From Phenylobacterium sp. (GTDB lineage: Bacteria > Pseudomonadota > Alphaproteobacteria > Caulobacterales > Caulobacteraceae): DNA of 64,000 bases. Positions 1 to 1,443 of this stretch are shown here, one piece after another (within the stretch, counting starts at the first letter, position 1; each line of letters opens with the position of its first letter). Below the pieces are notes generated by a model that did no database searches, was not told the origin of the DNA, and was given only the letters and a program-made list of their open reading frames with translations. A program made the position numbers and the translations under genes. The DNA is taken from the NCBI RefSeq assembly GCF_024508875.1, contig NZ_JANINU010000355.1, positions 1,027 to 65,026 of the forward strand, in the 5' to 3' direction.

Positions 1-199
1 ACAGCGCGAAGAAGCTTGGCCAGAACCAAGGGGAATCGCCGAGCCCGTCAGGAGCGATGCTCTCGAGCCAAGCTACGTAGCCAGCTTCCAGAGCCACTAG
101 CGGCCCGACGATCCAGCCGAACTGGGAGCGCTCGCTTCTACCCTTAAAGCTAAGCAACTGGATGGCTTGCAAGCTATCTGCTGCCTTGGCGCGTACCAT
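1..199 (-). CDS. DUF805-like membrane protein (runs off left edge); candidate immunity/partner of upstream toxin-like ORF
   Basis: Not in ORF track. ATG at 199 with GGAG 5 nt upstream; manual translation MVRAKAADSLQAIQLLSFKGRSERSQFGWIVGPLVALEAGYVAWLESIAPDGLGDSPWFWPSFFAL. LLSFKGRSERSQF followed by a hydrophobic stretch resembles the DUF805 N-terminus. Overlaps the end of the upstream ORF by 26 nt. Confidence 0.55.
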   Translation of the reverse strand, partial: MVRAKAADSLQAIQLLSFKGRSERSQFGWIVGPLVALEAGYVAWLESIAPDGLGDSPWFWPSFFAL

Positions 200-839
200 T
201 GCGCTCCATTCCCGCCTTCGCTGCTCCGGCTGGATGTCCGACAGCCGCCGCGCTGCCGACCTTGGCCCATGGGGGCGGCCCATGCCAGAGCTGTTCGGGG
301 AGCGTAAGCGGCGGTTTTCCATCCCAAGACTTGTTCATCCGCATATGGATCGCAGGGTCCTTCATGGGATGGATGTTCCACGGTTGGTTCTTGATGGCGT
401 CTGGAACAGATTTGCCCCATCCATTCTGCGGTATCGCCCAATGGTGGCCATGCTGGCCAGGCGCGAGATAACCCTTCTCGCCCATCCATGCGCGCACACC
501 GTTGCGGCCCTTCCATGCATGGGAGCCTGCTACTTTGAAGGCCCCTTTGCCCACTCCCTTCACAACTGCGCCGGCAAGAAAGAGATCAGAAGCCGCAAGC
601 GCGCCGTTTAACGCCGCACCCGCGATGTCCCCCTCGTAAGCGTCCGCGACCGCCTCGCGAGCTGAACCCCAGACGGGCACCACCGACTCCACGACGCCGG
701 GATGCTTGCGCCACCACTCCTCCTCCTGCTTCGCATTGTAGGCCTTCTGCTTTTCGATCATCGCGGCGTAAGCGGGACCATCAGGGTCGGGAACCGAGCG
801 CGGTTGATCGCCTCGGGCGTAAGAGCCGGGGCCAGCCAA
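174..839 (-). CDS. Orphan polymorphic-toxin-like protein with His-rich HNH-like C-terminal domain
   Basis: Trimmed from ORF 174..968 to TTG at 839 (GGAG upstream). Pre-toxin-like hydrophobic segment (VPVWGSAREAVADAYEGDIAGAALNGALAASDLFLAG) followed by GQHGHHWAIPQ..KNQPWNIHPM..IH, resembling Rhs-type toxin tips. Confidence 0.5.
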   Translation of the reverse strand: MAGPGSYARGDQPRSVPDPDGPAYAAMIEKQKAYNAKQEEEWWRKHPGVVESVVPVWGSAREAVADAYEGDIAGAALNGALAASDLFLAGAVVKGVGKGAFKVAGSHAWKGRNGVRAWMGEKGYLAPGQHGHHWAIPQNGWGKSVPDAIKNQPWNIHPMKDPAIHMRMNKSWDGKPPLTLPEQLWHGPPPWAKVGSAAAVGHPAGAAKAGMERNGTRQGSR

Positions 840-925
840 ATCTTCTCTCCATGTTTTCGCTTGTAGCGGCGCGGTCACCCTTCGAGCTACGCCAACGCAA
901 TGGCATAGCTTGCAGCGAAAATCAA

Positions 926-940
926 GAACAAAAAGGGAAC
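926..940 (-). promoter_or_regulatory. LexA (SOS) box
   Basis: Minus strand GTTC-CCTTTTT-GTTC is an exact match to the alphaproteobacterial GTTC-N7-GTTC consensus; intergenic, 87 nt upstream of the TTG at 839. Confidence 0.75.
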
Positions 941-948
941 ATATGCCT

Positions 949-1443
949 TTAGCTGGCGATGGGCTCACCCAGCTCCACCGTCACCTTCCCATCCGTCCCC
1001 TCCACCACCTTGAGTTCTGACCGCGGATCGATCTCGCCGAGATCCACGTCCTCCTTCGGCGTGACGACCCACGTCCGCCGCCCGGCGACCGCCACGACCA
1101 GCTTGCCCTTGCCCCAGTGCTCGGTCGCGAAGGCCTTGAGCGCCGCGTACATCGGGTTCCGGCGCCAGGCCTGGGGGTTGGCCACGTCGCAGCGGGCGAT
1201 GAGCCAGACGCCTTCGGGGTCCTGGTCGAGGACGACCTTGGTCTGGTCGGGCCGGAAGCGGTGGGGCATCTCGGGGTCCATCAGCCAGACGCACTCGAAG
1301 GTGCGGCAGCTATGCGGGCGGGTCGCGTAGATCCCGCAGCCGGCGCCGGGCTTCGCGTGCGCGCAGAGGCGGCCCATTGGCTTCTCCAGCTCGGCCACCG
1401 CCAGCACCCGGCAGCATTGCACGCACGGCCCGCAGGACTTCAC
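949..1443 (-). CDS. YkgJ-family cysteine-cluster (Zn/Fe-chelating) protein
   Basis: CGPCVQCC..LCAH..GCGIYATRPHSCRTFECVW pattern; GTGA overlap with upstream gene. Confidence 0.8.
   Translation of the reverse strand: MKSCGPCVQCCRVLAVAELEKPMGRLCAHAKPGAGCGIYATRPHSCRTFECVWLMDPEMPHRFRPDQTKVVLDQDPEGVWLIARCDVANPQAWRRNPMYAALKAFATEHWGKGKLVVAVAGRRTWVVTPKEDVDLGEIDPRSELKVVEGTDGKVTVELGEPIAS

Follow-up and report, generated by a model that had tools for sequence, protein, structure and literature searches.

The 15-nt sequence GTTCCCTTTTTGTTC at positions 926-940 (minus strand) is very probably a genuine LexA site, as judged by sequence comparison. It stands ahead of an acquired two-gene cassette. We consider it likely that a LexA operator on the -35 side of the promoter controls this cassette, which would comprise a stand-alone Rhs-type toxin, likely a nuclease, and an immunity-like partner, used with the logic of SOS-induced bacteriocins. 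The cassette is very probably one of several damage-switched toxin cassettes in this Phenylobacterium-type genome. It can be read as a variant of the SOS-induced toxin/immunity modules. The analysed window, that is, the whole 64-kb stretch of DNA, covers positions 1027-65026 of contig C355 in an assembly of 4.81 Mb (69.5% G+C, 359 contigs). The features are compiled in Table 1.

Table 1. Features of the cassette in the window, its sister cassettes and other boxed elements of the genome. Plain numbers are window positions; C numbers are given as contig:position.
Feature	Position	Strand	Remarks
LexA operator (SOS box), candidate	926..940	-	Exact motif and conservation in orthologues
Candidate -35, TTGATT	920..925	-	Adjoins the 3' half-site (GTTC, then TTGATT); read from the sequence
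Candidate -10	897..907	-	CATTGC (902-897), 17 nt past TTGATT, or TATGCC (907-902)
Shine-Dalgarno GGAGAG	845..850	-	5 nt ahead of the TTG start; read from the sequence
Toxin-like CDS, 221 aa, TTG start	174..839	-	Domain shared with the tips of Rhs/YD proteins
N-terminal tag, residues 1-45	705..839	-	Conserved MAGxGSYARGDQPRSVPDP, then a helix
Putative catalytic domain, residues 105-200	240..527	-	Alignments and AF2 model
Partner, DUF805 inner-membrane protein, 149 aa	1..199 (first 66 codons in the window)	-	Pfam E=5e-13
Sister cassette, Endonuclea_NS_2 nuclease (Pfam)	C81:4822		Partner: double SUKH/SMI1_KNR4 immunity protein
Sister cassette, PD-(D/E)xK-like protein	C141:4370		Motif by eye, no HMM match; partner DUF4304
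Sister cassette, PD-(D/E)xK-like protein	C71:5576		Motif by eye, no HMM match; partner DUF4304
Candidate pairs	C230:14170, C230:10279		No family match; one with MGHHF, one with HHPVPLHMGG
Small-terminase boxes	C18:1058, C64:30384, C138:3982, C251:1433, C314:2739, C338:4123, C231:14595		
Multi-copy element, contig ends	C7:14249, C95:8205, C96:9, C129:9, C245:3125, C273:2499, C297:284, C305:1865		
Box-at-start paralogues	C322:16217, C93:5002, C79:8287, C351:11685, C265:22889, C71:7420		

Conservation of the box and its promoter

The original prediction had placed the direct repeat GTTC-CCTTTTT-GTTC on the minus strand at 926-940. Re-reading of the sequence and a scan of the window recovered it there as an exact match. 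The count in the window is by itself no evidence beyond chance: one GTTC-N7-GTTC was observed versus 1.2 expected, and 65 of 100 shuffles contained at least one. The box is convincing because of comparative evidence, not because of this single match. A profile of the protein encoded downstream recovered 79 loci in species-representative genomes, mostly from Phenylobacterium, with a few Caulobacterales MAGs and distant phyla. Conservation was counted on the 40 loci that encode a full-length stand-alone protein, all from Phenylobacterium and its kin. A perfect box in the same orientation lies 51-98 nt upstream of the start in 37 of these 40 loci, a count that overstates independence because the loci are mutually related. 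The background in the same loci is 0.001 box per 80-nt window. The real argument for conservation is the divergence of every base around the box, not the number of loci. The original prediction had proposed a look at the orthologues as a check, and conservation, not absence, was found.

When 31 upstream sequences are aligned, both GTTC half-sites and the T-rich 3' part of the spacer stay invariant, and no other column does. Next to the box comes TTGAC, and after it a weakly conserved -10. Both closest metagenomic relatives are boxed, one being 82% identical overall and the other 66-71%; the latter has the same TTGATTTTCG after the box. No box was found upstream of the homologues outside Alphaproteobacteria, which are mostly Rhs fusions.

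The whole genome contains 145 GTTC-N7-GTTC sites, 53 of them with at least five A/T in the 7-nt spacer, compared with 38-46 sites, one or two of them T-rich, for reversed or permuted control motifs. The T-rich sites have the extended consensus (A)TGTTC-YYxTTTT-GTTC, often with TTGAC next. The lexA gene, recognised by a TIGR00498 N-terminal match, has the perfect box TTGACATTAACGCGGAACACCTAGAGAAC about 40 nt ahead of its start, and recA has the perfect upstream box GAACGTATTGCGAAC. Perfect boxes also precede comM/YifB (TIGR00368) and a PA0069-family radical-SAM gene. GTTCN7GTTC is the experimentally defined LexA operator of C. crescentus (PMC9578287 Table 1; PMC12700426), and both of these papers cite da Rocha et al. 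2008 for the C. crescentus SOS regulon with GTTC-N7-GTTC. The earlier identification of the motif as the alphaproteobacterial LexA operator fits its occurrence at lexA, recA and comM and its retention in the orthologues.

Two further observations concern the motif in this genome. GTTC-N8-GTTC is unexpectedly common: 459 sites were counted, of which 24 are AT-rich in the spacer, whereas N7 and N6 yield 145 and 107 sites, respectively. To judge by the 12-nt period, a coding or repeat effect may lie behind this excess. A perfect box also stands 4 nt ahead of a DUF559 (Vsr-like) endonuclease gene at C69:46. C. crescentus offers a parallel in CCNA_02876 and CCNA_02930, two Vsr-like genes that are SOS-induced (PMC12907096). 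An equation of BapE with a DUF559 Vsr-like protein was considered and rejected; these are different genes (PMC12907096).

Around the box, the local promoter could be read in part. The box lies inside a gap of 109 nt between the stop codon of a ykgJ-like ORF (949-1443, minus strand; its CxxCxxCC match is sub-threshold only, E=0.1) and TTG 839. Two distances in the original prediction were each one nucleotide too long: the box is 8 nt, not 9, from the ykgJ-like stop (949-951) and 86 nt, not 87, from the TTG at 839. TTG 839-837 is the most likely start, opening a 221-codon frame with GGAGAG upstream, and GGAGAG-N5-6-TTGGC(T/A)GGC is kept in the upstream alignment of the orthologues. The choice of this TTG is supported because the N-terminus MAGPGSYARGDQPRSVPDP aligns from residue 1 with the homologues.

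The promoter proposed earlier, TTGTTC-N18-TATGCC, was found at 931-926 and 907-902 (minus strand). TTGATT (925-920) is the better -35 candidate. The orthologue consensus at the junction of box and -35 is GTTCTTGAC, and the junction GTTCTTGA(C/T) recurs at many boxes of the genome, comM among them. The -10 assignment of the window promoter is weak: in the orthologue alignment, A at position 2 and T at position 6 of the hexamer are nearly invariant, and the window keeps the A only. A scan of positions 1-1500 with a strict E. coli-type sigma-70 consensus found no promoter. We infer the promoter in the window from the conserved TTGAC and from the pattern in the relatives.

The toxin-like protein and its partner

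The two genes behind the box differ in composition from their surroundings. GC3 is 0.68 in the toxin gene and 0.67 in the partner gene versus 0.92-0.93 in three flanking genes. The cassette sits between ykgJ-like and iorB-like genes, and in several other species the toxin occupies this ykgJ/iorB site as well, paired there with a DUF1963 protein. The two-gene cassette is evidently horizontally acquired. Of 38 sampled genomes of its own genus, 27 had a toxin homologue; in four other large genera of the family, with 38 genomes sampled from each, none was found. No named Caulobacter is among 88 relatives of the toxin.

The 221-aa protein has 273 close homologues, every one annotated as hypothetical, and had no match in Pfam, NCBIfam, PADLOC or PHROGs. 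When 1.84 billion representatives were searched with a profile, at least 1000 matches were obtained. In proteins of 746-3590 aa, the match to profile positions ~44-215 stops no more than ~20 residues short of the C-terminus, and these carriers contain RHS_repeat, a teneurin-type YD-shell, DUF6531 or DUF6443. This location at the extreme C-terminus of Rhs/YD proteins points to a polymorphic-toxin domain, of which the window would hold a free-standing copy. Some Rhs proteins are fused to the 88-205 half alone, that is, the HH..N..H part without the hydrophobic segment, so this half is the likely warhead. In an Aquidulcibacter protein (locus L063, ~2240-2500), the HH..N..H half directly follows the end of the canonical Rhs core (..YDVNTGRYIQADPIGLAGDDNPYAYARGNPLRYMDPTGE), a junction that puts the warhead boundary near residue 88 in the numbering of the stand-alone protein.

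The chemistry of this domain was approached by conserved residues and by structure prediction. In alignments of 58-89 sequences, H132, H133 and N151 are invariant, and the conservation of N155 and H165 is 90% or higher. Such a set of conserved His and Asn/His residues is compatible with HNH and Endo VII nucleases but not specific to them. The AF2 model has a pLDDT of 82 for the whole protein and of 87 for residues 101-205. Its N-terminal part consists of a disordered tag (1-20) and helices (21-97). The C-terminal part has a strand at 130-133 with H132 and H133, a second strand at 156-159, a helix at 162-167 with H165 and a long final helix. The model and the alignments agree with a beta-beta-alpha-metal nuclease, which we take to be the most likely nature of the putative HH..N..N..H domain.

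Family and fold searches gave no support for a more specific name. No Pfam match up to E=10, whether to HNH, AHH, Tox-GHH and similar profiles or to any other, was obtained for any of 89 family members. A PDB sequence search with the toxin returned spurious haemoglobin and cytochrome matches only. Foldseek found nothing significant with the full model against PDB and BFVD; with the trimmed domain, the sole match was NucA 2o3b, which is non-significant (E=10, 40 columns). Of the HNH-like nuclease toxin in the original prediction, the toxin-like character stands, by virtue of the Rhs/YD tip domain and a co-varying partner, whereas HNH found no HMM, PDB-sequence or significant fold match. The label 'HNH-like' is an unproven, motif-level hypothesis drawn from the conserved residues and the predicted beta-beta-alpha unit only. 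The broader proposal of a DNA-damage-inducible nuclease toxin module divides in the same manner: box and toxin-likeness are supported, and the word nuclease stays a guess.

The partner CDS runs 250 nt past the left edge of the window and encodes TM segments. Its ATG at 199 gives an overlap of 26 nt with the end of the toxin gene, which suggests joint translation of toxin and partner. Partners were surveyed in 41 loci, namely 38 of the 40 full-length loci plus L057, L092 and the window. A directly downstream gene is found in all 41, and the products fall into three unrelated classes. Class A combines an N-terminal TM helix with DUF1963 (19 loci), class B is an unknown soluble protein of ~165 aa (19 loci) and class C is DUF805 (3 loci: the window, its 82% relative and L010). 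The toxin domains of 34 of the 41 loci could be placed on a maximum-likelihood tree, on which the partner class follows the toxin with 4 changes versus 13.3 in shuffles, and none of 200 shuffles was as low. DUF805 was acquired twice on this tree. A partner class that tracks the toxin subclade shows the behaviour expected of a cognate immunity gene. Most likely, the DUF805 partner is an immunity protein that shields the producer. To our knowledge, DUF805 is not a recognised immunity family.

Sister cassettes, the N-terminal tag and other boxed elements

The same box and promoter stand ahead of at least three more toxin/partner pairs in the genome, plus two candidates. The promoter common to the cassettes is GTTC-N7-GTTCTTGA(C/T)-N12-13-GCTnTGAGA. 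The C141 toxin and the window toxin have residues 1-50 only in common (58% identity, E=5e-15), and the rest is unrelated. This N-terminal tag occurs in the variants MAGxGSYARGDQPRSVPDP or MAxMPxGxPRSVPDP, each with a helix after it, and is swapped between unrelated boxed toxin domains. In two other genomes, the same tag with a different C-terminus is encoded behind a box. Three more genomes have divergent members of the window-toxin family, boxed and paired with class-B partners. A second type of N-terminal leader, read by eye, is also common to different C-terminal parts. The promiscuity of the tag is documented by genome searches only; a word-index search with the tag alone matched only within the same toxin family.

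As a long shot, the tag might serve as an address label that sends polymorphic toxins into an undescribed, SOS-coupled delivery route in bacteria without type VI secretion. One possibility for such a route is loading into phage- or GTA-like particles with LexA-boxed small-terminase genes. Type VI delivery of the toxin was considered and rejected as unlikely, given that the sheath gene (TssC) is absent from the 92%-complete genome.

Boxes also occur at other elements. At about seven sites, Sf6-type small-terminase-like genes are preceded by a perfect box, and the promoter there is nearly the same each time (GTTC..GTTCTTGACATTCGCGCGC..TTTGAGA). The gene on C251 matches PF20901 (E=4e-41), and the others were assigned by eye. 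On C338, a large-terminase-like ORF comes after the boxed small-terminase gene. With these boxed terminase genes, a single genome could hold several packaging modules of phage- or GTA-like type under LexA control. A multi-copy element starts with the box GTTCTTCTTT(C/T)GTTC, has an ATG immediately next to it (ATGTCGCACAATGCGGAC...) and encodes a short helical protein (MSQPANIAERRAF...) that had no family match. Since this element lies at many contig ends, it probably breaks the assembly. Paralogous proteins of ~200-220 aa start 0-2 nt after a perfect box, and here the box overlaps the start codon. The box at C71:7420 is the same 15-mer as that at 926-940. Two members of these paralogues were tested and had no Pfam match, and one of the two had no NCBIfam match either.

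Proposed function and comparison with known systems

In the undamaged cell, a LexA dimer bound to GTTC-N7-GTTC would occlude the -35 and block RNA polymerase. DNA damage would lead to RecA-stimulated self-cleavage of LexA, which would release the promoter. Toxin and partner would then be transcribed and translated together. The first gene would provide a protein composed of the tag (~45 residues), a helical, partly hydrophobic segment (46-100) and the ~100-residue HH..N..N..H domain. The second gene (DUF805) would provide the cognate partner, with a likely role in immunity of the producer. The damage-triggered toxin/immunity pair would be used against neighbours, as in SOS-induced bacteriocins. 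The tag may mediate a step of release or uptake and is a candidate handle for export. The sequences show the motif and its enrichment in the genome, its retention ahead of the orthologues, the link with Rhs proteins, the co-varying partner class and the foreign base composition; that LexA binds, that damage induces the pair, and that toxicity, nuclease activity, immunity and export follow is what we infer.

The LexA regulation could be real and the pair could still act inside the producer, as a suicide or chromosome-fragmenting nuclease similar to BapE or as a growth brake similar to HigBA, not as an exported weapon. BapE and HigBA are the intracellular, SOS-induced toxins described under LexA control in Alphaproteobacteria, and both come from the bacterial family to which the window belongs (PMC12700426, PMC9578287). 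The small size of the toxin (221 aa) would agree with such a role, as would the lack of a visible export, uptake or lysis function and of TssC in the 92%-complete genome. However, the toxin domain is common to Rhs proteins, which are delivered toxins by established knowledge, and the exchange of a tag between unrelated toxin domains is a hallmark of a trafficking module. A suicide nuclease would also be neutralised by co-expressed immunity. The partner families SUKH, DUF4304 and DUF1963 are, as we take them to be, immunity-protein families of polymorphic toxins and not antitoxin families. We consider an intracellular role somewhat unlikely. A toxin that is not a nuclease and acts on the membrane, as a pore former or depolariser via segment 46-100, with membrane-anchored partners blocking it there, is unlikely as well. 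It would agree with the membrane character of two partner classes (DUF805; TM plus DUF1963) out of three, and it would fit the Kyte-Doolittle mean of 1.6 for residues 75-93, the many invariant residues in the first half of the protein and the failure of every search run to find a nuclease family. Yet the third partner class is soluble, and the Rhs proteins with the HH..N..H half only are devoid of the hydrophobic segment. The invariant H132, H133 and N151, the near-invariant N155 and H165 and the predicted strand-strand-helix arrangement fit a beta-beta-alpha-metal site, and the sister toxins are nuclease-type, one by its Endonuclea_NS_2 Pfam match and two PD-(D/E)xK-like by eye.

A fortuitous match, or binding by a regulator other than LexA, is very improbable. 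One match per 64 kb is the chance rate, and about 90 of the 145 genomic matches are GC-rich in the spacer and probably non-functional. At the orthologous loci, however, position, orientation and sequence of the box are kept in 37 of 40 while all flanking bases have diverged, and lexA and recA themselves carry the same extended motif. The preferred reading is that of a LexA-controlled toxin/immunity pair directed against neighbours. One portable LexA-boxed promoter would serve a set of free-standing Rhs-type toxin domains, each with its own partner, and a short N-terminal tag is common to two unrelated toxins of the set. If true, the logic of 'damage-triggered warfare' would reach a further bacterial class as well as polymorphic-toxin domains, and a toxin domain that is so far uncharacterised and has more than 1000 relatives would be added. 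DUF805 and DUF1963 would possibly be new immunity families. The cassettes would also pose the question how small toxins exit the cell and enter their targets without a known secretion system.

The box is identical to the alphaproteobacterial LexA operator in half-sites and spacing, is promoter-proximal and has a T-rich spacer as in the published GTTCttgttatGTTC. The described Caulobacter LexA regulon is without the regulated gene seen here, where the box belongs to a portable promoter that appears to travel with toxin cassettes. BapE (CCNA_00663), the SOS-induced apoptosis-like endonuclease of C. crescentus, is likewise a small LexA-boxed protein of Caulobacteraceae and shares the nuclease activity proposed here. 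Judged by distribution alone (0 of 38 genomes in each of four other genera), the evidence argues against the window toxin being a BapE orthologue. HigBA is a LexA-regulated toxin-antitoxin pair of C. crescentus according to PMC9578287, which cites Kirkpatrick et al. 2016 for it. It resembles the proposed cassette as a two-gene operon of toxin and antidote under LexA in the same bacterial family, but HigB acts as an RNase and its antitoxin binds DNA, whereas the window cassette has a membrane partner and a polymorphic-toxin-type toxin. The literature search found LexA-controlled colicins, HigBA and BapE, and no account of LexA-boxed free-standing polymorphic-toxin cassettes in Alphaproteobacteria.

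Rhs/YD-repeat polymorphic toxins reportedly carry C-terminal toxin/immunity cassettes, as Zhang, Aravind and co-workers are said to have described in 2012. They have the same domain as C-terminal tip and, as here, a variable, clade-specific partner gene after the toxin. The window copy lacks Rhs shell, PAAR and VgrG; the domain stands alone after the 45-residue tag, and a LexA-type box lies upstream.

SOS-induced protein toxins are textbook knowledge for enterobacterial colicins and Pseudomonas pyocins. The analogies with BapE and the colicins in the original prediction hold as functional likeness and not beyond it, as homologues were not found in the four other genera sampled and neither uptake domains nor a lysis gene are present. 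Colicin-type receptor-binding and translocation domains and a lysis gene were not found in the two-gene operon, and the next gene is convergent. The 45-residue tag is all that precedes the toxin part of the 221-aa protein. Colicins and pyocins have no sequence relationship to the window toxin and a different operator type, and the window cassette is chromosomal with a toxin of the Rhs-tip type. The proposed arrangement is nevertheless alike. Nuclease colicins (E2/E7/E9) and S-type pyocins have the order that we propose for the window cassette, namely a damage-controlled promoter, a toxin and then a tightly coupled protective gene, and colicins and pyocins also resemble it in the presence of several cassettes per genome and in their foreign composition.
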